In this document: positions 3,572 through 61,386 of the stretch, in pieces
Position numbering within the stretch: the stretch's first letter is position 1
Layout of the letters: each line of letters begins with the position of its first letter
Source: a virus
Taxonomy: Duplodnaviria > Heunggongvirae > Uroviricota > Caudoviricetes
DNA: 64,000 bases
Reading direction: 5' to 3' (one strand)
IMG/VR virus record: IMGVR_UViG_3300043466_001354
Translations under genes and position numbers: made by a program
Notes under the pieces: generated by a model
Database searches by the model: none
What the model saw: only the letters and a program-made list of their open reading frames with translations
What the model was told of the DNA's origin: nothing

Positions 3572-4387
3572 ATGGCCTTTGTAAATCACTTCTATAATGC
3601 GACTACGCGGAAGTATGTTGCGCTATTCGGTACTATCTTTAATAAGATCTCGATCACTCGAGACGGCTTAGATGGTGCTGAAGTGCAGCGTATGGTAGTT
3701 CCAATTGCATACGGCCCGTTTCAAAAGTTTCTTGCTCGTATCACGCAGGATCCAGATCTAACTCGTAAGACTGCTATCTCTCTTCCTCGTATGTCTTTTG
3801 AAATCACAAATATGACATACGATGGAGCGAGAAAGATACCATCGAAGCAAAAGATTCAAAAGAACCTAGGTGAGACAGATAGCCAAAAATCATATGTGTG
3901 GACGGCGACACCATATAACCTCGACTTTTCTCTTTATATAATGACTAAGTATTCGGAAGATGCAACAAAGATCGTAGAGCAGATCATACCATTCTTTAAA
4001 CCAGAGTGGACAGCTACGGTTAAGTTGATTAACGACCTTGATCCTATTGATATTCCTATCATTTTGAATGGAATTACGAACGAGGATCTATACGAAGGAG
4101 GCTTTGAAGAAAGAAGATCCGTCCTATGGACTCTTAACTTTACTATGAAGGGCTGGTACTTTGGTCCTGAAAGAGAAAAGAAGATCATTAAGTTCATAGA
4201 CACAGATATCTGGACATCTATGGACGCATCTTCGGATCCTTCTGAAGGTGTCAATGTATATCCAGGTCTAACCGCAAACAACGTGCCGACGACAGATCCT
4301 GACCTAACTATTCCATACGAAGAAATCCAGTTTGACGATGATTGGGGAATCATACGAGTCATAACAAGTAACCCAGAAGAAGAGTGA
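3572..4387 (+). CDS. 15: Tail completion / sheath stabiliser gp15
   Basis: N-terminus KYVALFGTIFNKISITR parallels T4 gp15 RYATLMGDLFSNIQIKR; 271 aa versus 272 aa in T4. Confidence 0.75.
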   Translation: MAFVNHFYNATTRKYVALFGTIFNKISITRDGLDGAEVQRMVVPIAYGPFQKFLARITQDPDLTRKTAISLPRMSFEITNMTYDGARKIPSKQKIQKNLGETDSQKSYVWTATPYNLDFSLYIMTKYSEDATKIVEQIIPFFKPEWTATVKLINDLDPIDIPIILNGITNEDLYEGGFEERRSVLWTLNFTMKGWYFGPEREKKIIKFIDTDIWTSMDASSDPSEGVNVYPGLTANNVPTTDPDLTIPYEEIQFDDDWGIIRVITSNPEEE

Positions 4388-4824
4388 AAATGAACAATGA
4401 TAAAATTTCAGAGGTTCTTGGTCTTAGACCTTTAGAAGAAGCAAAATCAGAAGAACTTGTGGTTGTATACGAAGAAAAGGAAGTCATCACTGCTGTTGCA
4501 ACAGTCGTAGAAGACGATGAAACAATTCGAGATATCGAACAGGTTCGCGGAAACATCAAGAACATTATAGAGCAAGGCGATGACGCATTAAAGGAAATGA
4601 TTAGTCTTGCAAAACAATCTGAGTCTCCACGTGCGTTTGAAGTTGCGTCAACTCTTATGAAGACTCTCCTCGATGCTAACAAAGATTTCGTTGAAATCTC
4701 TACGAAGAAGAAGTACGCAATTGAAGAAAAGAATGGTCCTAAGGAAGCTGCTCAGACGAACGTAACGAATAACAATCTCATACTCTCGACAGCAGATCTT
4801 CTTAAGATGTTAAAGGGTGAATAA
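4384..4824 (+). CDS. 16: Terminase small subunit gp16-like
   Basis: 146-aa acidic protein directly upstream of gp17 and translationally coupled to it (ATGA overlap). Confidence 0.55.
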   Translation: MKMNNDKISEVLGLRPLEEAKSEELVVVYEEKEVITAVATVVEDDETIRDIEQVRGNIKNIIEQGDDALKEMISLAKQSESPRAFEVASTLMKTLLDANKDFVEISTKKKYAIEEKNGPKEAAQTNVTNNNLILSTADLLKMLKGE

Positions 4825-6437
4825 TGGGTGACGGATATCTTGGTAATATACACTTAAAGAAAACTGGTGAACCAATCGAATGGACGCCGGAACTCATAAA
4901 GGAATACGTTAAGTGTTCTGAAGATCCAATATATTTCGCTAAGAAGTATATTAAGATCGTTCACGTTGATCACGGTCTCATTCCTCTCGACATGTATGAC
5001 TATCAGAAAGAGATAGTTGAAAAGATTACAAACAATCGTCGTCTTGCAGTTCTTACGGCTCGCCAGTCTGGTAAAACGACTACGGCCGTCGCAGTGATTC
5101 TACACTACATACTCTTTAACGAGTTTAAGACTGTCGCCATCCTTGCGAACAAGGGAGACGCAGCGAGGGAAGTTCTTGCTCGTATTAAACTTGCGTATGA
5201 AGCTCTACCTAAGTGGCTACAGCAGGGCATTGAAGAATGGAACAAAGGAAACATCGCTCTCGAGAACGGATGTAACGTTTTGGCCGGAACAACGTCTTCT
5301 TCGGCTATTCGTGGTAAGACGGTGTCGTTCCTCTATCTAGACGAGGTAGCCTTCATCGAGGGATACGATGAATTCTTTGCATCGGTATATCCAACCATTT
5401 CATCAGGCGAGTCTACAAAGCTTCTAATGACCTCTACACCAAACGGATTGAACCACTTTTGGAAAACATGTAAGGGAGCCGAAGAAGGCACTAACGGTTA
5501 CGAATACGTTAAAGTCATGTGGTATGACGTCCCTGGCCGTGATGAGAAATGGAGAAAAGAAACGATCGAGTCGCTCGATCACGACGAGGAAAAGTTCAAT
5601 CAGGAATACTGCTGTCAGTTCCTCGGATCTTCTGGTACTCTCATATCGGGTTCAAAGCTCAAAGAGCTGTCATACTCAACACCACTATACGCAAACGAAG
5701 GTCTTTCACAATATGAAAAGCCAGTCGGTAATCATGTGTATGCGATGACTGTTGACGTATCGAGAGGAAAGGGTCTAGACTATTCTACCTTTAGCGTGAT
5801 AGATATAACTTCTATGCCATATAAACAGGTATGTACATTTAGAGATAACTTTGTATCGCCGATTGATTTCGCTTCGATAATATATAGAGTAGGTACCGCA
5901 TATAATGGAGCCTTGATTCTAACTGAGATTAACGACATCGGAGCTCAAGTGTCTGATACTCTTATCATGGATTTTGGATATGAAAATATGCTTTACACTG
6001 AGAACGCTGGAAGAGAAGGAAAGCGTATTTCAAATGGTTTCGGAAAAATAACCGATACAGGAATAAGAACCACAAAATCTGTGAAGGCCGTTGGGTGTTC
6101 TATGCTTAAGCTATTAATCGAACAGAACCAGTTACTCATTAATGATTTTCAAACTATCCAAGAACTATCACGTTTTTCAAAAAAGGCGAACTCATACGAA
6201 GCAGAACCGGGATCTCACGACGATTTAGTTATGAACCTCGTATTATTTGCTTGGTTGACTAACCAGGCGTATTTCAAAGAGATTACTGACATTAATACGC
6301 TGCACAGATTAAGAGAGAAGACCGAAGAACAGATCGAAGATGATCTTCTTCCCTTTGGGTTTATTGATATAGGCGCCGACGACCTAAAACCTGGTTGGAA
6401 GCAGGCATCCGATAAATCAGACAACTGGATGATGTAA
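4824..6437 (+). CDS. 17: Terminase large subunit gp17
   Basis: Walker A RQSGKTT; blocks TSTPNGLNHF, TKAVGCS.LK.LIE, HDDLVM shared with T4 gp17. Confidence 0.95.
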   Translation: MGDGYLGNIHLKKTGEPIEWTPELIKEYVKCSEDPIYFAKKYIKIVHVDHGLIPLDMYDYQKEIVEKITNNRRLAVLTARQSGKTTTAVAVILHYILFNEFKTVAILANKGDAAREVLARIKLAYEALPKWLQQGIEEWNKGNIALENGCNVLAGTTSSSAIRGKTVSFLYLDEVAFIEGYDEFFASVYPTISSGESTKLLMTSTPNGLNHFWKTCKGAEEGTNGYEYVKVMWYDVPGRDEKWRKETIESLDHDEEKFNQEYCCQFLGSSGTLISGSKLKELSYSTPLYANEGLSQYEKPVGNHVYAMTVDVSRGKGLDYSTFSVIDITSMPYKQVCTFRDNFVSPIDFASIIYRVGTAYNGALILTEINDIGAQVSDTLIMDFGYENMLYTENAGREGKRISNGFGKITDTGIRTTKSVKAVGCSMLKLLIEQNQLLINDFQTIQELSRFSKKANSYEAEPGSHDDLVMNLVLFAWLTNQAYFKEITDINTLHRLREKTEEQIEDDLLPFGFIDIGADDLKPGWKQASDKSDNWMM

Positions 6438-6448
6438 AATCTCGTTAT

Positions 6449-6456
6449 TATAAATA
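6449..6456 (+). promoter_or_regulatory. T4-type late promoter TATAAATA upstream of gp18
   Basis: Exact TATAAATA about 55 nt upstream of the gp18 ATG, followed by AAGAAG...AAAGGAG. Confidence 0.6.
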
Positions 6457-6509
6457 AAGAAGAAAAGATTGAAACTTATCAAATAAATCTTACGAAAAAG
6501 GAGAAAAAT

Positions 6510-8369
6510 ATGGTTTTTTCTGTAAGCCCATCCGTCATTGTTAGAGAAGTGGACGCGACTGCCGTAATACCGGCCGTAGCTACACCTCCTGCTGCTGTTG
6601 CCGGTGTGTTTCGCTGGGGACCAACCAACGAACGCATTCTAATCACATCAGAAGATGAACTTGCTTCACGTTTTGGAAAGCCGTTTGCTAACACAACATG
6701 GCAGAATCATGAGACATTCTTTACCGCAGCTGACTTTCTGTCATACTCGAATGCTCTATATATAACTCGAGTAACGTCAGATTCTGCTGCATCTGCTAAC
6801 AGCACATACTTCGAAGCAAAGTATGAAGGTGCACTCGGTAACTCTCTCCAGGTTGCGGTAGTATCTTCCGCTTCGTTTTCTGATACACTTGCTGCGGTTG
6901 GAGACGCGACAGGTATCTTTAACTTTAACTCTAACACGGTAAACCTATCTCTTGAAGACGAGATCACAACTGCGCTTCAAGTAGATGATATAGTTCGTAT
7001 CGGCAATCCAACGATTGGTTATCAAGATTTAATCGTCACCGCTTTCACGGACAACGAAGCAAACACTACGCCGTTTACATACAGTGTTAGTTTTAAGAAC
7101 AGATACACTCTAACGGAAACGGATATGGCGTTTCTTAGCCTAGAAAGAAGATGGGGATACGGCGACCGCGTAGGTGCTGCTCCATCTAACAATACTCTAG
7201 TTCATATCTCTGTTATTGATAAACTAGGAACAATCAGCGGTATCGTAGGAAGCGTTCTTGAACTATACGAAAACGTATCAGTTTCATCGTCTGCAAAACT
7301 TCCAGATGGAACGACAAACTACTATGTTGACGTAATTGCAAACCGTTCCGCATACATTAAAGCGATCGGGACTGACGCTGCGCTAGGCGATAACACGCCA
7401 TCCGCTGCACTCACAGGAACGTTTACATCCCCGATCTATGGAGCTCTAAGCGGTGGTTCTGACGGTGACGGTGAAGCTGCAATCTCTCTTGGAAAAGTTG
7501 CTCTTGGATACGATCTCTATAAGGATCCTAACGAGGTTGACATCTCTGCGCTTCTAACCGGCAAGTCATCAAGTTCTAACCTTGCTAACTATCTAACACA
7601 GAACATAGCAGAGTCACGTAAAGACTGCGTTGTGTATGCGTCTCCGACGTATGCTAACGTTGTAACACCAGCAAATCCAACCGATAAGATGAACAACGCG
7701 ATTGCATTTAGAAATAGCTGTACATCGTCATCCTATCTTGTGATTGACACTGGATACAAGTATCGTTACGATAAGTATAACGATGCATATCGTTGGGTTC
7801 CACTTAACGGTGACATTGCAGGTCTATCAGCTCGCATCGAGTCATGGGAGTCTCCGGCTGGATACAAGCGTGGTGTTATCAAGAACGTCGTAAAGCTTGC
7901 ATTCAATCCAAACAAAGCACAGCGAGATCAACTTTACGGCAGCGACATTAACCCAGTCATCGCGCAGGTTGGGCAAGGTGTTCTTCTGTTCGGTGATAAG
8001 ACTGCTCTTGGAACTGCGACAGGAAGCGCGTTCACTCGCATCAATGTTCGCAGACTCTTCATCACTGTTGAGAAAGCAATCGCCACTGTGGCTGCTTCGT
8101 TCCTCTTTGACTTCAACGACGAGTTCACTCAGACACAGTTCAAGAACTTGGTCGAACCGTTCCTTCGTGACATTCAAGGAAGAAGAGGTATCATAGACTT
8201 TAGAGTCGTCTCTGATGCTACAGTAAATACACCAGACGTAATCGACCGTAACATCTTTAGAGGCAACATCTTCATTAAGCCAGCGCGTTCAATCAACGTG
8301 ATCGAGCTTACATTCGTTGCGACTAGAACCGGTGTAGAATTCGATGAAATCGTTGGTCAGCCACTCTAA
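6510..8369 (+). CDS. 18: Tail sheath protein gp18
   Basis: YRYDKYNDAYRWVPLNGDIAGL.AR...W.SPAGY.RG matches the conserved T4 gp18 block. Confidence 0.9.
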   Translation: MVFSVSPSVIVREVDATAVIPAVATPPAAVAGVFRWGPTNERILITSEDELASRFGKPFANTTWQNHETFFTAADFLSYSNALYITRVTSDSAASANSTYFEAKYEGALGNSLQVAVVSSASFSDTLAAVGDATGIFNFNSNTVNLSLEDEITTALQVDDIVRIGNPTIGYQDLIVTAFTDNEANTTPFTYSVSFKNRYTLTETDMAFLSLERRWGYGDRVGAAPSNNTLVHISVIDKLGTISGIVGSVLELYENVSVSSSAKLPDGTTNYYVDVIANRSAYIKAIGTDAALGDNTPSAALTGTFTSPIYGALSGGSDGDGEAAISLGKVALGYDLYKDPNEVDISALLTGKSSSSNLANYLTQNIAESRKDCVVYASPTYANVVTPANPTDKMNNAIAFRNSCTSSSYLVIDTGYKYRYDKYNDAYRWVPLNGDIAGLSARIESWESPAGYKRGVIKNVVKLAFNPNKAQRDQLYGSDINPVIAQVGQGVLLFGDKTALGTATGSAFTRINVRRLFITVEKAIATVAASFLFDFNDEFTQTQFKNLVEPFLRDIQGRRGIIDFRVVSDATVNTPDVIDRNIFRGNIFIKPARSINVIELTFVATRTGVEFDEIVGQPL

Positions 8370-30117: not shown

Positions 30118-30369
30118 TCAAAAAGCTGACTGGCCGTAATTTCCTAGTGTATCTTCGATCTCTTTTACGAATTCCGAGTATCCTCCGATGTGTCTCTCAT
30201 CCCACCAGATCTGCGGAACCGTCTTTACTTCTGGATAACGTTCAAACATTTCATCGCGGTTATCTGTAAACCCGGTATTCTTGTATTCGTACTTTAAGTC
30301 GTATTGCTCGGCGATCTTTTTTGCTTCTTGGCACCAGTGGCAGTTGTCCTTACCGTATATTGTAATCAT
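30118..30369 (-). CDS. nrdC: Glutaredoxin (NrdC-like)
   Basis: 83 aa with CHWC active site and thioredoxin-fold hallmarks (TVPQIW..GG). Confidence 0.8.
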   Translation of the reverse strand: MITIYGKDNCHWCQEAKKIAEQYDLKYEYKNTGFTDNRDEMFERYPEVKTVPQIWWDERHIGGYSEFVKEIEDTLGNYGQSAF

Positions 30370-52375: not shown

Positions 52376-52866
52376 AGTTTACTTCCAACACGATAAAAGA
52401 CATGACCACCATAGTATCCTACTTTTGTATAGTGTTTAGCCCAATGAGGCTTTACACGTTTTGTGTGATAGTGTGTGGCGTTAGTACCAATTAGGTCTGC
52501 GGTACCATCAACTAGACCAGTCGCAATCTCTACTGATTCAGACCACAACTCTCGATCACGAGGCATATCAGATCTACCATCGCAGTACCAAGAGAACTGA
52601 CATTTTCCACGAAGTGGATTACCGTTAGAATCGGTTTTCGCCTGATAGACTACATCGCATATGGTACTTGGAAAGAGGTTATTTCCTGCTCGATTAAGTG
52701 TTACTTCACCGACCATCTGCATTGCATCGCTTCCTTCACCTCTTGCCTCGTGATACATGTTGAGTGCCAGAGCATGAATTTTATCCTCTGTGTCACAAGC
52801 CGAAGCATATGCCAAAGAAGAACTTAAAAGCATGGTTAACGTAAATGTTAGTGTTGATAAACGCAT
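52372..52866 (-). CDS. SleB-like cell-wall hydrolase (Hydrolase_2 family) with a signal peptide
   Basis: LALNMYHEARGE ... VGEVTLNR ... FPSTICDVVYQ signature of the SleB/CwlJ family. Confidence 0.7.
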   Translation of the reverse strand: MRLSTLTFTLTMLLSSSLAYASACDTEDKIHALALNMYHEARGEGSDAMQMVGEVTLNRAGNNLFPSTICDVVYQAKTDSNGNPLRGKCQFSWYCDGRSDMPRDRELWSESVEIATGLVDGTADLIGTNATHYHTKRVKPHWAKHYTKVGYYGGHVFYRVGSKL

Positions 52867-52890
52867 TAGATTTCCTGTTCGTTGTTTCGA

Positions 52891-53085
52891 TTACGAAGCT
52901 TCAACCCAATCGTTTTGCATTTGAATAATCATCTGCAGTTCAACACGTTCAGCAACTTCTTCGTAGTTCTGAGCGACATCAATAATGGCTTCTAGGATTT
53001 GTTGGCGACTATAACCAAAGGAGTCTGCCCGACGAGCCAAACTACGCATTTTACGGGCAAACTCAATCGCGGATTGAAGTTCCAT
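52891..53085 (-). CDS. Hypothetical early protein
   Basis: 64-aa ORF downstream of a promoter-like element. Confidence 0.4.
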   Translation of the reverse strand: MELQSAIEFARKMRSLARRADSFGYSRQQILEAIIDVAQNYEEVAERVELQMIIQMQNDWVEAS

Positions 53086-53117
53086 TGTATTTATCCCTTA
53101 TCGGTTTCTGTAATACT

Positions 53118-53146
53118 ACAGTATACCGATTCGGGGACAATGTAAA
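53118..53146 (-). promoter_or_regulatory. Early promoter, diverged (TTTACA-17-TACTGT)
   Basis: Shares the CTATTTACATT -35 context. Confidence 0.4.
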
Positions 53147-53153
53147 TAGAAAA

Positions 53154-54809
53154 TTAGGCTTCGCAGGCTGCGCAGCTGCTTGCCATCACTCTTTTTCTAG
53201 TCAACGACTGCGCAGCAGACATCGAGTAGCTGTAGTAGAGACTCTTAACACCCATTTCATGCGCATATAGGTATAGTTGGTTTATTTCCTTCACGGACAT
53301 GTGAGGATCCAACATGAGGTTAAGGCTTTGCCCCTGATCTATATATTCTTGACGGACAGCCGCATGATCGATGATCGTGTATGGATTGATTTCTGCGAAC
53401 GTCTTGAATACATCCTTCTCTTCCTGAGACAAGAAGCTTAGGTGTTGAACGGAACCGTCTGCTATCTTAATGGAGTCCCAAACTTCTTCCGTGTCCATAC
53501 CTTTTTCCTGAAGCAGCTGAAGAAGATAAGGGTTCTTAATCGTAACCTTCATCTTTGCGAGATCCTTCACGTAGCAGTTAGAGAACTCTGGCTCGATGGA
53601 TTGACTTACTTGACCAAGGATGAACGAGCTGCTCTTTGTTGGAGCGATAGCCATCGTAGTCGTATTGCGCATTCCGTAACCAACAAGAAGAGGAGCCTCG
53701 CCAAACATTTCTGCGAGAACTTTAGAAGCTCTATGGCTCTGTTCACGAAGGACCTTTGCGATCTCAAGATTCTTTTGAGCGGCTTCTTTTGACTCAAATG
53801 CAATCATCTTTGACTGAAGATATGAATGCCATCCAAGTATTCCTACACCAAGTGCTCTGTGATTGATTGCGAACTGACGAGCTCTCTTGAGATATTCTTG
53901 GCCTTCAGTCTTACGAATGAACTCCTCGCATACTGTGTCGAGGAAATAAGTCATGACTTCGATCGCATCGGTCTTAATGATCTCATCCCAATGAAGAACG
54001 TTGATTGACGATAGAACGCAAGTAAAGGTTTCTTCTACGGAAGAAGGAAGCGCGATCTCAATACACATGTTCGATGCATGGATCTTGAGGTCTTTATCCT
54101 TATATACTTGAGGCTTGTTATTGTTAACATTATCTCCGAAGAGAACATATGGATAACCAATCTCAGAACGACGCTGAAGAACCTTTGCCCAAAGACGACG
54201 TTTTTCTGCGTCTCCATCCTTCATTGCCTGAATGAATTCGTTTGAAACAACAACACCGGTCGTTAGTCCCTGAATTGGATTTCCTTCCGTTCCGATGTCA
54301 AGAAACTCGTCTGCGTCTGGGTGATCGATGTCGTGATATGCAGCAAAGAAGCCACGACGAACAGAACCCTGAGATACGACTGAAGCCAACGAATCATATA
54401 GCTGCATAAAGTGCACAGAACCCGAAGACTCGCCCGAGTCACGAATAGGAGCACCACGATGACGTACTGCACCGAAGTAACCGGAAGTACCTCCGCCGTT
54501 CTTCATAAGCATTCCGTTCTCGGCGACACCGTATAGAATGGATTCCATGTTATCGTCGATGTAAGAACCAAAGCAGGATACTGGAAGTCCTCTTTCCTTA
54601 CCATAGTTTGCCCAGACTGGCGACGACAGAGAGTAGAAACCACGAGCCATGTAGTCATAGAACTTGTCAGCATATCCTGGCATGGTCAAATACTTTTCTG
54701 CAGTATCAGCAATCGCACGAATGCGTTCCTCAGGAGTTTCACCTTCGCTTAGATATCCGCGAGACAAAAACTTTCTTGAGTCATCGTTGAGCCAATAGAA
54801 TTTTTCCAT
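53154..54809 (-). CDS. nrdA: Ribonucleotide reductase large subunit NrdA (class I, no ATP-cone)
   Basis: Catalytic NxCxE motif SNMCIEI; Gly-rich effector regions; 551 aa with the N-terminal cone absent. Confidence 0.8.
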   Translation of the reverse strand: MEKFYWLNDDSRKFLSRGYLSEGETPEERIRAIADTAEKYLTMPGYADKFYDYMARGFYSLSSPVWANYGKERGLPVSCFGSYIDDNMESILYGVAENGMLMKNGGGTSGYFGAVRHRGAPIRDSGESSGSVHFMQLYDSLASVVSQGSVRRGFFAAYHDIDHPDADEFLDIGTEGNPIQGLTTGVVVSNEFIQAMKDGDAEKRRLWAKVLQRRSEIGYPYVLFGDNVNNNKPQVYKDKDLKIHASNMCIEIALPSSVEETFTCVLSSINVLHWDEIIKTDAIEVMTYFLDTVCEEFIRKTEGQEYLKRARQFAINHRALGVGILGWHSYLQSKMIAFESKEAAQKNLEIAKVLREQSHRASKVLAEMFGEAPLLVGYGMRNTTTMAIAPTKSSSFILGQVSQSIEPEFSNCYVKDLAKMKVTIKNPYLLQLLQEKGMDTEEVWDSIKIADGSVQHLSFLSQEEKDVFKTFAEINPYTIIDHAAVRQEYIDQGQSLNLMLDPHMSVKEINQLYLYAHEMGVKSLYYSYSMSAAQSLTRKRVMASSCAACEA

Positions 54810-54812
54810 TTA

Positions 54813-55016
54813 TTATTCCTTAAAATATGTATTAATAATTTCGAGTTGATCGTGGTACTTTGCCATCTCCTCGAGTTCCTTTTCTATTGTGTCCATGATA
54901 TCTGAATGCTCACCAACTCCGACTGGATTATTCAAATAGATTTCAACGTTTACCTTATGCTTATTGATATGCGCAATCGCGTGGTCTCGAAGCGCAATTA
55001 AGATTTCTTTTCTCAT
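54813..55016 (-). CDS. Hypothetical small protein between nrdB and nrdA
   Basis: 67-aa ORF. Confidence 0.4.
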   Translation of the reverse strand: MRKEILIALRDHAIAHINKHKVNVEIYLNNPVGVGEHSDIMDTIEKELEEMAKYHDQLEIINTYFKE

Positions 55017-55028
55017 TATATGTTCTCC

Positions 55029-56309
55029 TTAGAATAGATCTGATTCTGTGAATGACTTTGTCTTCTTTGAGTATGCAGTGCTACGCTTGACGAAGAAGTC
55101 AACGTTCTTTGTGCTGAGGATTTCTTCAACAAACCAGTTCGTGCTCTTCACTACATTGACATCGGTTTCATAGATAGGTTTAAGGTCGATTGCCTGAAGC
55201 GACTGATTGAAACGGTGCTTGAGGAATTCTTTTACGGTTTCTTTCGGAAGAAAGTCAAGATCCGAATCACCATAGATCCAATCAACGATCATAGCTTCTG
55301 CCTTATATGCTTCTTTGCAGAGACGGTTGACTTCGGATATGGTATCCTTGTTCCACCAGTCTGGGTTCTCTGCTTTAATGATATTCACGAGTTCGAAACC
55401 AAAACGAGCGTGAATGTCTTCTTCTTTTGAGGTAGCTTCAACAGCGTTAGAGATACCCTTAAGGACGTTCTTATGTTTATTGAATGCCATCATAATAAGG
55501 AACTGAGAGAATAGCGATACATTTTCAACGAACATAGAAAAGAGAATGATCTTATGGAAGTAGTCCTTATCATCAACTGGAGTCTGAAGCGACTGCTCGA
55601 GATATGCGATACGCTTCTTAATCGCTGGTACTTCAACTAGGTTCTCAAACTCAGAGTTAAGACCCATTATCTCAAGAAGGTTTGAATACGCATCAGCATG
55701 ACGAACTTCAGACTCACCAAAGGTAACACCAACGGCTTGTACTTCTGGCTTTGGCATCTTATCGCCAACCTTCGCCCAGAACGTTTTGACTTGAACTTCG
55801 ATCTGAGAGATAGCAAGCATTGCCTTCTTTACAATATCTGCTTCCTGAGGAGTCATACGAACCTTCATATCCTGAATGTCGGATGAATAGTTAAACTCTG
55901 TATGAACCCAATAGGAATGGCGGATTGCTTCAAGGTACTCGATGAGTTGTGGATATTCGTAAGGTTTAAGATTTGTTCTCTTACGAAAGATACTTGGCAT
56001 ATTGTTATAACGATAGAGGATGTATTCTCGAGCGAGATCGTGCAGACCCATATCCATGATTACGTTTTCAACTGTTCTATGAATTGCGTCGACGCTTACG
56101 ATAACATCATTGAGAGCATCGCTGTTAAGTTTATCGGCCACTTCCAATGAAACTTCTTCTGGTATAGTTTTACTTTTAATTCCAACTGATCTCATAGCTT
56201 TTGAAACTGCGGTAACAATTTTATTTCTATCGAAGTTTTCAGTTGAACCGTCTCTTTTCGAAACATAGCTCACTGTCTTTCTTATTTCGTTATTCGAAAC
56301 GTCCAGCAT
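55029..56309 (-). CDS. nrdB: Ribonucleotide reductase small subunit NrdB with an N-terminal ATP-cone
   Basis: N-terminal about 90 aa match the ATP-cone (VSKRDGSTENFDRNKIVTAVSKA...LAREYILYR); the R2 ferritin-like E..H motif follows (SEVRHADAYS). Confidence 0.8.
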   Translation of the reverse strand: MLDVSNNEIRKTVSYVSKRDGSTENFDRNKIVTAVSKAMRSVGIKSKTIPEEVSLEVADKLNSDALNDVIVSVDAIHRTVENVIMDMGLHDLAREYILYRYNNMPSIFRKRTNLKPYEYPQLIEYLEAIRHSYWVHTEFNYSSDIQDMKVRMTPQEADIVKKAMLAISQIEVQVKTFWAKVGDKMPKPEVQAVGVTFGESEVRHADAYSNLLEIMGLNSEFENLVEVPAIKKRIAYLEQSLQTPVDDKDYFHKIILFSMFVENVSLFSQFLIMMAFNKHKNVLKGISNAVEATSKEEDIHARFGFELVNIIKAENPDWWNKDTISEVNRLCKEAYKAEAMIVDWIYGDSDLDFLPKETVKEFLKHRFNQSLQAIDLKPIYETDVNVVKSTNWFVEEILSTKNVDFFVKRSTAYSKKTKSFTESDLF

Positions 56310-56466
56310 GCGTAAGTACCTCTTATCGTTATTAGTGAAAATGAATCAACACCCTACGAATAGGGTTTATCAAATACATATATTGTGGATTTTAGTCTGT
56401 TTTAGTCAACATGTAGTATTTATTCTTATCTCAAGAGCTTTTTGAAGTTATATACAATATTTTACT

Positions 56467-57357
56467 TCACACTGCCATGTCCATTTTGATAGTTGAATGA
56501 TGAAAATAGTTTATAAGTTGAAACTTATTTACGTCGTCGAGTCTAAATCCGTTCTTAAGTCTATCCATGAGATCAAAGTCGGTGTCTATGTGTAGAGTAG
56601 GAAGAGGAAACTCTTCGCGAGTCAATTGTTCTCTTACTTGTTCGATATGGTTCGTATAGATATGTGCGTCTCCGATAGTATGAACAAAATCGCCAACGCC
56701 TAGATTACATTCTTTTGCTATGATATGAGTTAATAGAGAGTATGAAGCAATGTTAAATGGAATTCCGAGACCGGCGTCGCCGCTTCTCTGATACATCTGG
56801 CAACTCAACTTACCGTTAACGACCCGAAACTGCGTGAGTACGTGACAGGGCGGTAGGGCCATTTCGGAGGTCTGTAGAGGGTTCCATGCTGAAAGGATAA
56901 TTCTTCTTGAGTCAGGGTTGGTTTGTATCTGTCGGATAACATCCACGATCTGGTCGACTCCCCAGTCTCCACCCTTGATGTTGTTGAAGTTGCGCCACTG
57001 AGCTCCATAGACTGGGCCAAGCTCTTTGGTGAATTCATTGTTGATGTATCCAAGAGCCTTCCCTTGAGTGTCGGCATTGGCGGTCCAAATTGTAGATCTT
57101 CCGATAAGGTCGACGCGATGTTTGTTAAAAGTGAGTTCCGCCAAACGCCGTTCGTCTGTTCCACCTTCGAGGAACCAGAGTAGTTCTCCAACGACTGCTT
57201 TCCATGCGAGCTTTTTTGTCGTAACTGCAGGGAATCCGTCTTGTAAATTAAATCGCATTTGGTAACCGAATATGGATCTTGTCCCTGTTCCTGTCCTGTC
57301 ATTTACGTCCTCTCCGTACTCTAGGATATCTTCGAGTAATTTATGATACTGTTTCAT
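56467..57357 (-). CDS. td: Thymidylate synthase ThyA (T4 td-like)
   Basis: Classic ThyA blocks DRTGTGT.S.FG.Q.RF and LPPCH..F.F; 296 aa. Confidence 0.9.
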   Translation of the reverse strand: MKQYHKLLEDILEYGEDVNDRTGTGTRSIFGYQMRFNLQDGFPAVTTKKLAWKAVVGELLWFLEGGTDERRLAELTFNKHRVDLIGRSTIWTANADTQGKALGYINNEFTKELGPVYGAQWRNFNNIKGGDWGVDQIVDVIRQIQTNPDSRRIILSAWNPLQTSEMALPPCHVLTQFRVVNGKLSCQMYQRSGDAGLGIPFNIASYSLLTHIIAKECNLGVGDFVHTIGDAHIYTNHIEQVREQLTREEFPLPTLHIDTDFDLMDRLKNGFRLDDVNKFQLINYFHHSTIKMDMAV

Positions 57358-57863
57358 CTTTTAACCCACTTTGTAATAATTCCAAAACTTAAAACTTCTA
57401 CGCTACCCATATGAAACTGTTCCGTGATCTTTTGTTTAGGAAGGAATGTATCGCAATCATAAACACCGCCGACATCGTTTAACCAGAGTTCATCAATGAT
57501 TTCAAGACAACTCTCAACGAGCTGCGCACCACCGATGATCCAGATTTTAGAATGATCCGAGTATCGTTTCACAATCTTATCTTTAATTACTTCTACAATA
57601 TCATTGCCGCCATACGTACCATGATAGCCACGCGAAATATTATTCGAAGACGAGATAACGTAGTTGAGTCTATTAGGTAATGGCTTGACGTGTAGACTCT
57701 CCCAAGTCTTTCTACCCATCACAACGACACCACCGAGCGTCTTTTCTTTAAACCATTTAAGATCATCGCTATTCTTTGGCCAAGGAAGATCACCGTCCTT
57801 TCCAATTCCCCAAAAAGCATCGTGAGCTAAAATAGCATTTACATTCTTCATACTTTTCTCCAT
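57354..57863 (-). CDS. frd: Dihydrofolate reductase
   Basis: IGKDGDLPW, VVMGRKT..S and WIIGG motifs. Confidence 0.85.
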   Translation of the reverse strand: MEKSMKNVNAILAHDAFWGIGKDGDLPWPKNSDDLKWFKEKTLGGVVVMGRKTWESLHVKPLPNRLNYVISSSNNISRGYHGTYGGNDIVEVIKDKIVKRYSDHSKIWIIGGAQLVESCLEIIDELWLNDVGGVYDCDTFLPKQKITEQFHMGSVEVLSFGIITKWVKR

Positions 57864-58855
57864 GATGCTAACTTAAGTGTCGCTTGAAGACCCTTATAAG
57901 TGTTTTCTCGAATGACTTCTTCAACGTTTGATATACCGTTTAGAACCATTTCATTTATATCCTTGCCAGGCACGCTAGAGGGCCATACGCACACTCGATA
58001 ACCGGCGTTGATGAGCCTCTCAATCCTTTTATGGATCTCTTTATTCCGAGGCTCAGCATCGAATACAAAGATCGCGTTGTCAGCTCTTTTCAGACCACTT
58101 ACGTTTCCGTCAGCACCTGCCATTGCAACAGCGTTTGAAAGAAACATACAGTCGAGAGCACCTTCAACTACGAAGTATGTCTGTTCAAAATTTACAGTGT
58201 CGAGGCCAAAGATCTTAGAACGTTCTTCAAACATAATGGTAATGTATCTTACGCCGTTCGGATCAAAACCACGAGCCGACACACCAAACATCTTTCCGTT
58301 CTCATCAAAGAATGGAATTACGAGACGAGGTTCGTCTTTGCCTACGTTCTCAAACTTATTTGGAATAATGCTATTGATCCAAGTTTTAAACTTTGGGGCA
58401 AAATACATTCGATAGTGGTGCTGTGGTGGAATTCCTCTTTTCATTACGTACTTTTTAAGAGGATGATCCGTGGATAGTTGACTCACCTTCTTAAGTTGTT
58501 TAAGAGGGTCAACATTGAACACAGGCTTTTCAAATTTTGTTTTTTCTAAGATGGACGCATCGGACTTCTTCGCGTCCTTCACAAACTTTTCTGCGATGTA
58601 ATCATTATATGCCATACCGTCAATACTCTTGAGAAAGTACGAGAACGATTGGCTTGCGCCGCAGTTATGGCAGTAGAAGTGGAAGCTGTTATCTTTTTCG
58701 AGCAGCCAGCCTCGTGCCTTCGTCTTTGACGTCTGAGAGTCGCCGCAGACAGGGCACCTGAAGTTTATCTTATACGGATTCGTCGACCGAACTTTAAACC
58801 GATCCAATCGGCTCGAAAGCATAGTCGCGTATTGGAGATCTACAAAATCTACCAC
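57848..58855 (-). CDS. 61: DNA primase (T4 gp61-like; zinc-binding plus TOPRIM domains)
   Basis: N-terminal CPVCGD...H..C..C zinc ribbon; TOPRIM region EGALD ... FDAEPRN; GTG start with a GAGG RBS. Confidence 0.7.
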   Translation of the reverse strand: MVDFVDLQYATMLSSRLDRFKVRSTNPYKINFRCPVCGDSQTSKTKARGWLLEKDNSFHFYCHNCGASQSFSYFLKSIDGMAYNDYIAEKFVKDAKKSDASILEKTKFEKPVFNVDPLKQLKKVSQLSTDHPLKKYVMKRGIPPQHHYRMYFAPKFKTWINSIIPNKFENVGKDEPRLVIPFFDENGKMFGVSARGFDPNGVRYITIMFEERSKIFGLDTVNFEQTYFVVEGALDCMFLSNAVAMAGADGNVSGLKRADNAIFVFDAEPRNKEIHKRIERLINAGYRVCVWPSSVPGKDINEMVLNGISNVEEVIRENTYKGLQATLKLASWRKV

Positions 58856-60245: not shown

Positions 60246-60452
60246 TTATTTTTTGGCTTCGTCTTCGTCCTCATCTTCTTCGTCTTCGTCTTCGTCTTCA
60301 TCTTCCTCTTCTTCATCTTCGTCTTCTTCGTCATCAGACATCTTTGCTTCGAGAGCAAGACGAATACGTGCTGCAAGCTCTGCTTCTAGAGCTTCCTTCA
60401 TCGCTAGAGGATTTTTATCAACTGAATGCTTTATAATATCAGTAACAGACAT
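60246..60452 (-). CDS. Small protein with a poly-Asp/Glu C-terminal tail (DNA-mimic or acidic-tail candidate)
   Basis: MSDDEEDEDEEEEDEDEDEDEEDEDEDEAKK encoded by GAA/GAC/GAG triplet repeats. Confidence 0.5.
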   Translation of the reverse strand: MSVTDIIKHSVDKNPLAMKEALEAELAARIRLALEAKMSDDEEDEDEEEEDEDEDEDEEDEDEDEAKK

Positions 60453-60492: not shown

Positions 60493-61386
60493 TTATTTGA
60501 GTAGCTTTGCTAGAGTCGCTGGCCCAGCGACACCGTCGGCTTCTAATCCATTCTCTCGCTGCCACTTCTTGAGTGCGCCGGCAGTTCCAAAACCAAAGTC
60601 ACCGTCTGCGGCAATTCCGAGAGCTTGCTGCATTCTTTTAACATCGTCGCCCTTCATCCCTCTCGTGAGAGTTCTCTGGGCAGCCTTAGGAGCAGCGGCC
60701 GCTGGTTTTGCTGCCGACGCTGGTTTTGCTTGCTCAGTAACAGGAGGTGCAGAAACCTTACCGCCAAGTAGTGCTTTCGCTTTTGTATAACGAGTAGTAC
60801 GATCTTCAAGACCAATCGTTCCACCATTGATTTTCTTAGTCATTCCAACAATGTCGTCTGCATCTGCAAACTTAGCGATGTTGTTCGTTTTCCAGAACCA
60901 GCATGCGGACTCAAGAGCACCTTTCTTTGTGTCAAGATAAGCTGATGCCTGTTCTGCGGTCATGTTAACAGTCTTTGCGAATGCGGTGTAGTTATTACGT
61001 CCAGTTAACTGCTTAACTCCGCGACCACGGAATCTCCAACCATCTCCTGCTTGAGTATTTCCCATAGCACCCTGCTTACTTCTAAACTCGTCCATATAGA
61101 CGTAGTTCGCAATCTTCTCTGGGTTCTTTGCATACTCAGCTGCATTGCGCTTTCCAGCTCCGAAGTAGCGTGGGAATACCTTGAGAAGAGTTTCTTCACG
61201 ATAGTTAAGGTTCTCTTCAAGCATTGTAAAGTCAGCTGACTCGTGAGCACACTGTGCCATGAAAGCCGCAATGCGAAGTGGTGTTGTGATTTCATACTTT
61301 TCAAACATGTCGATAGCTACATCATACCATTCTTTAGCTTCTTTATTCTTCGGTATCATTGCGCTGAACTGTTCTAATGTAATCAT
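60493..61386 (-). CDS. Endolysin: GH19 chitinase-like lysozyme domain plus C-terminal peptidoglycan-binding domain
   Basis: AAFMAQCAHESADF GH19 catalytic region; C-terminal GDDVKRMQQALG...DGDFG...AL..WQ PG_binding_1 repeat. Confidence 0.75.
   Translation of the reverse strand: MITLEQFSAMIPKNKEAKEWYDVAIDMFEKYEITTPLRIAAFMAQCAHESADFTMLEENLNYREETLLKVFPRYFGAGKRNAAEYAKNPEKIANYVYMDEFRSKQGAMGNTQAGDGWRFRGRGVKQLTGRNNYTAFAKTVNMTAEQASAYLDTKKGALESACWFWKTNNIAKFADADDIVGMTKKINGGTIGLEDRTTRYTKAKALLGGKVSAPPVTEQAKPASAAKPAAAAPKAAQRTLTRGMKGDDVKRMQQALGIAADGDFGFGTAGALKKWQRENGLEADGVAGPATLAKLLK

Follow-up and report, generated by a model that had tools for sequence, protein, structure and literature searches.

A predicted class Id ribonucleotide reductase with its ATP-cone on the NrdB subunit in an uncultured T4-like phage

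Background

The 64,000-nucleotide stretch of DNA analysed here, referred to as the window, is from IMG/VR virus record IMGVR_UViG_3300043466_001354 (Caudoviricetes) and encodes a class I ribonucleotide reductase (RNR). In this phage the nucleotide sensor that turns the enzyme on and off, the ATP-cone, is on the small subunit, NrdB, rather than on the large subunit, NrdA, an arrangement that has been known since 2018. We read the pair as an aerobic class Id RNR in which activity would be controlled through the NrdB-borne ATP-cone, in a scheme like that of the L. blandensis and Facklamia ignava enzymes, and we put the probability of this reading at about 0.8. The details of the oligomers that would be formed are less certain than the overall identity of the system and its regulatory logic.

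The ATP-cone is part of NrdB

A first-pass annotation of the window, made from the sequence alone, had proposed that the N-terminal 90 or so residues of the 426-aa NrdB are an ATP-cone, and this has been borne out by a hidden Markov model scan. The Pfam profile PF03477 matches residues 15–101, covering profile positions 2–84 of 88 and scoring 68.0 bits (curated cutoff 25.8; E 1.1e-18), which is far beyond chance. The motifs VSKRDGSTENFDRNKIVTAVSKA and AREYILYRY are seen in the protein, as are E201-V-R-H204 and E297-D-I-H300. Alignment to characterised cone-bearing NrdB proteins agrees with the annotation as well. The closest solved structure is 5OLK, the dATP-bound cone-NrdB of L. blandensis, which is matched over the full length of the protein (residues 7–426, E 7.6e-138); 6SF4, 8DQ3, and 6CWO, class Id beta subunits without a cone, follow in the PDB ranking, with classes Ia, Ib, and Ic far behind. 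Overall identity to the L. blandensis NrdB is 53%; by region the figure is 34% for the cone, 59% for the core, and 62% for the tail.

The predicted fold is that of an ATP-cone joined to an R2 core. In the AlphaFold model of NrdB, which has a predicted local distance difference test score (pLDDT) of 84.1, the N-terminal domain is a beta-hairpin roof at residues 15–25 (strands 15–17 and 23–25) over a bundle of four helices (28–42, 49–63, 73–86, and 90–103), with pLDDT mostly 85–93. The top Foldseek match of the model is 5OLK_A, with both domains aligned and template modelling (TM) scores of 0.73/0.78. Residues 401–426 have low pLDDT, as expected for a disordered tail. The tail holds Y413 and ends in ...STAYSKKTKSFTESDLF; by homology it would be the segment for NrdA binding and radical transfer, and its Y413 and K415 are invariant in alignment A1.

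Could the cone have been joined to nrdB by an error of assembly or a frameshift, from an nrdR-like gene or the 5' end of an nrdA? No supporting point for such an artefact was found, and it is refuted by the breadth of the architecture, which leaves it with practically no chance of being correct. Contigs from many independent metagenome samples encode exactly the same 426-aa protein. Of the clusters formed at 90% identity, at least 120 are 81–100% identical to NrdB, all of them with both domains, and 80 IMG/VR viral contigs encode a homologous NrdB at 53–91% identity (at least 70% in 79 of them). All 80 of these matches extend into the cone, within the same contiguous cone-plus-R2 open reading frame (ORF), and 5OLK has the same architecture. 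From the identical ORF in independent metagenomes, the clusters, and the IMG/VR loci it follows that the fusion is real.

A longer chain was also encountered in the search of cluster representatives. This 1019-aa protein (P0255) has an ATP-cone at 11–101, R2 at 116–386, and the NrdA all-alpha and barrel domains at 465–841 onward. Such a chain is either a genuine beta-alpha fusion RNR or an artefact of a frameshift or read-through.

NrdA has no cone

The 551-aa NrdA, with its SNMCIEI motif, begins without a cone, just as the first-pass annotation had stated. Its Pfam domains are Ribonuc_red_lgN and the barrel only, with no ATP-cone detected. The NCBIfam model TIGR02510 ("NrdE-prime") is matched at 772.8 bits, with a cutoff of 602.25, over model positions 13–560 of 560, and the alpha structures of class Id are matched with E values of 1.2e-214 (6DQX) and 3.3e-188 (6DQW). 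From residue 2–3 onward NrdA aligns to TIGR02510 and to the N-termini of 6DQX and 6DQW, which are themselves cone-less.

A cone encoded in a missed upstream exon of nrdA, or a second cone elsewhere in the window, was considered and rejected. NrdA aligns from its N-terminus as given above, the 220 nt upstream of nrdA are taken up by the unrelated 67-aa gene, and nrdA follows nrdB in 77 related loci. The 67-aa ORF shows no resemblance to a cone, and the same holds for all other ORFs of 50 aa or more in the window.

The residues expected of a catalytic subunit are all present in NrdA: the catalytic Cys, Asn, and Glu, the redox cysteine pair, the Tyr-Tyr pair for radical transfer, and the C-terminal shuttle cysteines. 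They are C79, N248/C249/E251 (in SNMCIEI, 246–252), C264, Y525/Y526, and C546xxC549. We take their counterparts in Escherichia coli, from the motifs, to be C225/C439/C462/Y730/Y731. By sequence, NrdA is a minimal cone-less catalytic subunit of class Id (NrdAi).

The window also encodes a glutaredoxin, some 25 kb away from the nrd genes. By analogy with the glutaredoxin domain fused to the F. ignava enzyme, this protein is a plausible candidate reductant for the C546xxC549 pair.

In four of the related loci (L009, L010, L068, and L078) the C-terminal half of NrdA (query residue 240 onward) is about 2 kb farther downstream than expected (nrdA region ~5300–8260). This implies an insertion of about 2 kb in nrdA, for example an intron, intein, or homing endonuclease. 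The nrdA of the window is uninterrupted.

NrdB has a class Id metal site

Six metal ligands are recognised in NrdB (E171, E201, H204, E262, E297, and H300), and they align in the same order to E170, E200, H203, E263, E298, and H301 of L. blandensis. The first of them is Glu and not Asp. W178 is present, with K175 three residues before it, and the position of the radical Tyr is occupied by Y208, a Tyr that in NrdBi is non-radical. In the published description of NrdBi (PMC6754362) the first metal ligand is a Glu, one Trp is strictly conserved, and a Lys specific to the subgroup stands three positions before that Trp. In the NrdB model the first metal-site helix is broken at 174–175, as is typical of class Id. 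The core of the model fits Mn-loaded 6SF5 with a TMt of 0.97 and a root-mean-square deviation of 1.3 Å, and class Id cores overall are matched by Foldseek with TMt 0.92–0.97.

Judged by these residues, NrdB is a class Id (NrdBi) radical-generating subunit. The annotation was right in recognising an R2 core with E..H ligands, which is supported by the motifs and the PF00268 match, but it named the metal as iron. By homology to class Id it is almost certainly manganese that these ligands bind, and the cofactor carried by NrdB is most likely a dimanganese Mn2(IV,III) centre.

The cone is maintained by selection

Eight cone residues (K18, R19, K30, A34, A93, Y96, Y99, and R100) vary little or not at all across 22 diverse cone-NrdBs, and the window cone has every one of them. 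Which of them contact the nucleotide? No written list of the dATP-contacting residues of L. blandensis was found in the text of the paper, where they are colour-coded in figures, so the contacts were judged from the P. copri NrdD list together with conservation. In cones that bind two dATP the nucleotide contacts are a Lys-Arg pair, a stacking aromatic, and an Arg, which are K7, R8, Y83, and R87 of P. copri NrdD. K18, R19, Y96, and R100 of the window cone correspond to these. A counterpart of the second Arg (R91 in P. copri NrdD, K97/R98 in L. blandensis) is absent from the window cone. Given these correspondences, the cone would be expected to bind ATP and dATP.

In 79 related viral sequences K18, R19, E81, M85, Y96, I97, and R100 are invariant. 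The core has a median dN/dS of 0.029 and the cone one of 0.084, so that the cone evolves about three times faster. These values are from less divergent pairs among the relatives, since synonymous sites are saturated between the window and its relatives. The cone is under strong purifying selection and, because of the invariant residues and the dN/dS of 0.084, it is a maintained domain and not a relic.

The faster evolution of the cone might be taken to mean the opposite, that it is an inactive remnant without nucleotide binding, comparable to the degenerate inner cones found in NrdAs with several cones, and that the enzyme is unregulated. Viral RNRs do often lose activity regulation (see the discussion in PMC9669993). 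Even so, a relic is very improbable: besides the selection on the cone and the invariance of K18, R19, Y96, and R100, the Pfam score is well over the cutoff, the fold is modelled confidently, and the cone is kept in 80 of 80 related loci.

Proposed mechanism and a short-linker cone subtype

In the L. blandensis and F. ignava enzymes, ATP keeps NrdB dimeric and permits the active alpha2beta2 complex, while dATP on the cone leads to a beta4 form through cone helices 3 and 4 (PMC5794259, PMC6187632). The alpha2beta4 and alpha4beta4 complexes that this gives are without activity, probably since the asymmetric active complex cannot form (PMC8350387). This mechanism has been established by biochemical and structural work on these enzymes, and their cofactor is Mn2(IV,III). 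In the window enzyme it would likewise be the N-terminal cone of NrdB that most likely sets overall activity. ATP in the cone would leave NrdB as a dimer, and the active alpha2beta2 complex would be formed. When dATP is bound instead, cone-cone contacts would push NrdB into larger assemblies (beta4 in the enzymes studied so far), and these would sterically block productive alpha2beta2, turning off dNTP synthesis. Oligomerisation of the window NrdB driven by dATP is thus a prediction by analogy with these two enzymes.

How well does the window cone fit this mechanism? The hydrophobic core of the tetramer interface is kept, with M85, I97, and L98 in place of M80, I92, and I93 of L. blandensis, and M85 and I97 are invariant in the 79 relatives. 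The cone-cone interface of L. blandensis also has salt bridges from Asp73 (and the paper's "Asp76") to Lys89, as well as an internal Asp73-Arg95 bridge, and this published set of salt bridges is not reproduced in the window cone. At the other interface positions, E76 of L. blandensis is E81 in the window, D77 is N82, K89 is R94, and R95 is R100.

The window cone belongs to a type that differs from the characterised ones. Its linker to the core is four residues shorter than that of L. blandensis and has no basic residues after the last helix, where L. blandensis has K97/R98. Its helix 3 has the motif IH(R/K/N)TVE, as opposed to (I/V)QD.VE in the long-linker type. These features (the helix-3 motif, the linker, and the terminal basic residues) co-vary across diverse sequences. 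The long-linker, Asp-bearing type is found in L. blandensis, F. ignava, Staphylococcus phage Romulus, Sporosarcina phage Lietuvens, and a Campbellbacteria metagenome-assembled genome (MAG); the short-linker type is found in the window, its relatives, and Balneolaceae/Bacteroidetes MAG contigs. No characterised member of the short-linker type was found.

Several points weigh against the reading of the window enzyme as a class Id RNR with a switch like those of L. blandensis and F. ignava. Asp73, which makes both an internal and an inter-subunit salt bridge in L. blandensis, is replaced by Arg78 in the window; among the 79 relatives the position is Lys or Arg in 64 and Asp in none. The window cone is just 34% identical to the L. 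blandensis cone. Both characterised enzymes are of the long-linker type, so the oligomer and the nucleotide stoichiometry could differ here. A biochemical study of the window NrdB, or of any phage cone-NrdB, was not found in the literature, and we infer the identity of the metal in NrdB from conserved residues. The loss of Asp73 makes an identical interface less likely but leaves the case for regulation by the cone as it was.

These differences bear most directly on the possibility that the cone is functional yet unlike the L. blandensis/F. ignava switch. It might bind a single nucleotide per cone, use another cone-cone or cone-core interface, have an inhibited state other than beta4, or mainly tune activation by ATP. 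The co-varying features that set the subtype apart, and the basic residue in place of Asp73 in most relatives, are what would be expected of such a cone. ATP-cones are also known to yield many oligomers (alpha4beta4, alpha4, alpha6, beta4, and NrdD tetramers), and even F. ignava differs from L. blandensis in ATP stoichiometry (PMC6187632). We consider a switch of a different kind unlikely, however, as the hydrophobic interface and the main phosphate- and base-contacting residues are conserved, and the architecture and operon match those of the characterised enzymes.

Cones and cores appear mosaic among relatives

The cone and the core do not seem to share one history among the relatives of the window NrdB. 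Of 257 pairs with cores at least 95% identical, 56 have cones that are at most 70% identical. In the pair L019 and L033 the cores are 99% identical and the cones 60%, and in the most discordant pair, L022 and L055, identity switches at about residues 90–120. Synonymous divergence (dS) in the discordant pairs is 2–3 in the cone versus 0.6–0.8 in the core. This suggests that recombination swaps the cone-coding 5' segment among these phages. The swapped stretch possibly includes upstream genes as well, because thyA and the dihydrofolate reductase (DHFR) gene are upstream in only some related loci. L027 and L033 are a further example of a mosaic pair; nrdB is at ~4001–5275 in each of the loci named here.

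Taken further, the window cone would be a second subtype of NrdB-borne cone, maybe with a cone-cone or cone-core interface or a stoichiometry other than that of beta4, on a segment that would recombine independently of the core, so that phages may swap modules to retune dNTP feedback. This extended proposal is tentative, and we think it unlikely to hold as a whole.

Gene order and the 67-aa ORF

The order nrdB, 67-aa ORF, nrdA, which had been singled out in the first-pass annotation, is confirmed by the minus-strand ORFs but is not a peculiarity of this phage. Beta followed by alpha is the rule for cone-on-beta operons and is frequent in NrdAi, being found in 70 of 104 operons (PMC9669993, 2022). 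The cultured phages with a cone-NrdB also have nrdB followed by nrdA. The window system has the features of the cone-on-NrdB type: an N-terminal cone on NrdBi, a cone-less NrdAi, and an operon with beta before alpha.

The ORF between the two genes is real. It has its own AAGGAG ribosome-binding site and 306 homologues, and it is a member of phrog_1811 (E 1.9e-30), a small family with no function assigned that is widespread in cyanomyophages, cyanopodophages, and pelagiphages. In cyanophages the homologues adjoin terminase, psbA, or capsid genes, and in closer relatives they adjoin GTP cyclohydrolase I. Further copies are in L003 (3989–4204), L004 (4001–4204), and L166–L171. Of the 80 IMG/VR loci, just L001, L002, and L006 have the ORF at the nrdB-nrdA junction; in the other 77 nrdA comes after nrdB without it, mostly with a gap of 12–40 nt.

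Might the product be an RNR accessory protein, similar to NrdI or NrdH, or a metallochaperone? This was rejected, as the protein has no cysteine and no Pfam or NCBIfam match, its phrog_1811 relatives lie in the other neighbourhoods given above, and it is missing between nrdB and nrdA in 77 of the 80 loci. The 67-aa ORF is a conserved, roaming phage gene and not an RNR component, although it is probably co-transcribed with the nrd genes. Its protein is modelled as a two-helix antiparallel hairpin (pLDDT 94) with invariant H12, H16, H20, E25, H37, D39, and E47 and an invariant loop, NPVGVGEHSDIMD. A fold search with this model gave no significant match, the best being the DksA coiled-coil, a generic helical hairpin (E 0.49).

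Sporosarcina phage Lietuvens (L172) has two small hypothetical ORFs of 72 and 57 aa at 4301–4749, between its cone-nrdB and nrdA. Because Lietuvens also has small ORFs here, small genes seem to insert repeatedly at the nrdB-nrdA junction.

The locus and the phage

The coordinates of the RNR genes, the domains of NrdB, and the neighbouring genes are given in Table 1.

Table 1. Features of the RNR locus and associated genes, in window coordinates
Feature	Position	Strand	Basis or location
nrdB, 426 aa: ATP-cone and predicted class Id (NrdBi) radical-generating subunit	55029..56309	-	ORF, Pfam
ATP-cone domain, NrdB residues 15–101	56007..56267	-	PF03477
Cone-core linker, NrdB residues 102–110	55980..56006	-	Alignments; F. 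ignava sequence from supplementary Fig S4
Ferritin-like R2 core, NrdB residues 111–384	55158..55979	-	PF00268 (Ribonuc_red_sm), E 3e-56
Flexible C-terminal tail, NrdB residues 385–426	55032..55157	-	Alignment, pLDDT
67-aa ORF (phrog_1811), between nrdB and nrdA	54813..55016	-	ORF, PHROG match
nrdA, 551 aa: predicted class Id (NrdAi) catalytic subunit without cone	53154..54809	-	ORF, Pfam, TIGR02510
thyA-nrdB spacer, sole sizeable non-coding stretch of the block	56310..56466	-	Sequence
Thymidylate synthase (thyA)	56467-57357		Just upstream of nrdB
DHFR	57354-57863		Upstream of nrdB, beyond the thymidylate synthase gene
Primase	57848-58855		Upstream of nrdB, beyond DHFR
Glutaredoxin, 83 aa, CHWC motif	30118..30369	-	PF00462, E 2.9e-10, 40.6 bits vs 22.9 cutoff

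The gap between nrdB and the 67-aa ORF is 12 nt and that between the 67-aa ORF and nrdA is 3 nt, and each of the three genes is preceded by its own Shine-Dalgarno-like sequence. The three are probably transcribed together as a unit, in a nucleotide-metabolism block of thymidylate synthase, DHFR, and RNR genes. The spacer between thyA and nrdB has a weak σ70-like match (TTGACT, 16 nt, CACAAT). A promoter scan of 52800–57000 gave 5 sites against 9.3 expected, which is not above chance, and a terminator scan of the same region found none.

The spacer also has a hairpin on the minus strand at 56351–56366, a perfect 6 bp stem (ACCCTA-TTCG-TAGGGT) with a UUCG-type tetraloop in RNA. It is about 40 nt 5' of the nrdB start codon and downstream of the σ70-like match.

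The window is from an uncultured T4-like myophage. Its genes, by PHROG, include the large terminase, the tail sheath, the portal (phrog_213), and the major head protein (phrog_138), and its replication genes include a Dda-like helicase, a primase, and a ligase. The capsid protein has 64–68% identity to its counterparts in Sinorhizobium phages phiM12/phiN3, Methylophilales phage Melnitz, and cyanomyophages. When the 5.9-kb nrd/thyA/DHFR block was compared by megablast with 50,697 phage records, no nucleotide match to a cultured phage was obtained, and on that ground the source phage is taken as uncultured. The relatives of the window genes point to a probable marine or aquatic origin.

The longest contigs with this NrdB (P0001, P0045, P0046, and P0116) recur at 213–219 kb. 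This suggests a genome of about that size for the phage lineage, on the borderline of the jumbo phages.

A cone-NrdB 78% identical to that of the window is encoded on a 43-kb contig (L086, FZLS01000020.1) assigned to 'Rhodobacteraceae bacterium Water_Bin34'. This is probably a phage contig mis-binned into a Rhodobacteraceae MAG, and at best it is a weak hint of the host.

Elsewhere in the window, a 68-aa ORF at 60246–60452 on the minus strand has a C-terminal half that is a near-pure run of Asp and Glu (DDEEDEDEEEEDEDEDEDEEDEDEDE). It is just 5' of a 297-aa gene (60493–61386) with a peptidoglycan-binding domain.

Comparison with known systems

The window does not hold a new kind of system. The cone-on-NrdB architecture, its mechanism, and its viral occurrence were published in 2018, with 93 RefSeq sequences "encoded by viruses and bacteria" (PMC5794259). 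The Mn2(IV,III) cofactor was published in 2018–2019 (PMC6754362 among the papers), the inhibited complex in 2021 (PMC8350387), and the operon order has likewise been described. Viruses that carry a subclass Id RNR are abundant in the ocean according to a 2026 preprint.

The first-pass annotation described the arrangement as rare and recently characterised. It is indeed known, since 2018, but its rarity is relative. In addition to the RefSeq sequences, 75 records of the cultured-phage collection match at least 80% of the window NrdB. In an exhaustive search of 1.84 billion cluster representatives, the cone is carried by about 29 of the best 150 clusters (50% identity level) and is lacking in many; most relatives of the window NrdB in Bacteroidota genomes are cone-less.

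What the window adds is an abundant lineage of uncultured T4-like phages, probably marine, to the carriers of a cone-on-NrdB class Id RNR. In this lineage the presumed dATP off-switch is kept under strong purifying selection, though viruses often discard such regulation. The new points are modest: a short-linker cone subtype that is uncharacterised and lacks Asp73, and the mosaicism of cone and core. Because no study of a phage cone-NrdB was found and the subtype has no characterised member, a short-linker phage cone-NrdB would be a reasonable test case for the generality of the beta4 mechanism.

Among known systems, phage T4 has a class Ia RNR in which nrdA precedes nrdB, NrdA begins with a cone-type N-terminus, and NrdB is of the diiron-tyrosyl kind. 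Like the window it has an aerobic class I RNR in a T4-like genome, beside thymidylate synthase and DHFR genes; the window enzyme is of another RNR subclass. No literature on the dATP insensitivity of the T4 RNR was found.

The class Id enzymes of Flavobacterium johnsoniae, Actinobacillus ureae, and Aggregatibacter (6CWO/6CWP, 8DQ3, 6DQW, and 6DQX) share the subclass, the metal site, and the minimal NrdA with the window enzyme. Unlike it, they have no activity switch, because their NrdB is without an ATP-cone.

Closer in architecture are the cultured Staphylococcus phages Romulus, Remus, and SA11 (Silviavirus) and Sporosarcina phage Lietuvens, in which a cone-NrdB is followed by a cone-less NrdA. 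Their identity to the window proteins is 47–49% for NrdB and 55–58% for NrdA. They differ in having the long-linker, Asp-bearing cone and Firmicutes hosts, and several of them (annotated in the Staphylococcus phages) have homing-endonuclease insertions in nrdA.

The F. ignava Grx::ATP-cone::NrdBi (JBC 2018, PMC6187632) likewise has the cone on NrdBi with nrdA directly downstream, and both its dATP-driven NrdB tetramers and its Mn(III)/Mn(IV) cofactor have been established (PMC6187632). It differs from the window enzyme in its extra fused glutaredoxin domain, which is a separate gene in the window, and in its long-linker, Asp-bearing cone.

The NrdAi/NrdBi of L. blandensis (5OLK, 6SF4/6SF5; PMC5794259, PMC8350387) has the same succession of cone, short linker, R2 core, and disordered tail, together with a cone-less NrdA. 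The metal ligands are kept between the two, as are K175, W178, Y208, and T293, the tail is conserved, and M85, I97, and L98 are the same or conservatively replaced. The L. blandensis enzyme is from a flavobacterium and not a phage, and its NrdA has an N-terminal extension of about 40 residues that the window NrdA is without.

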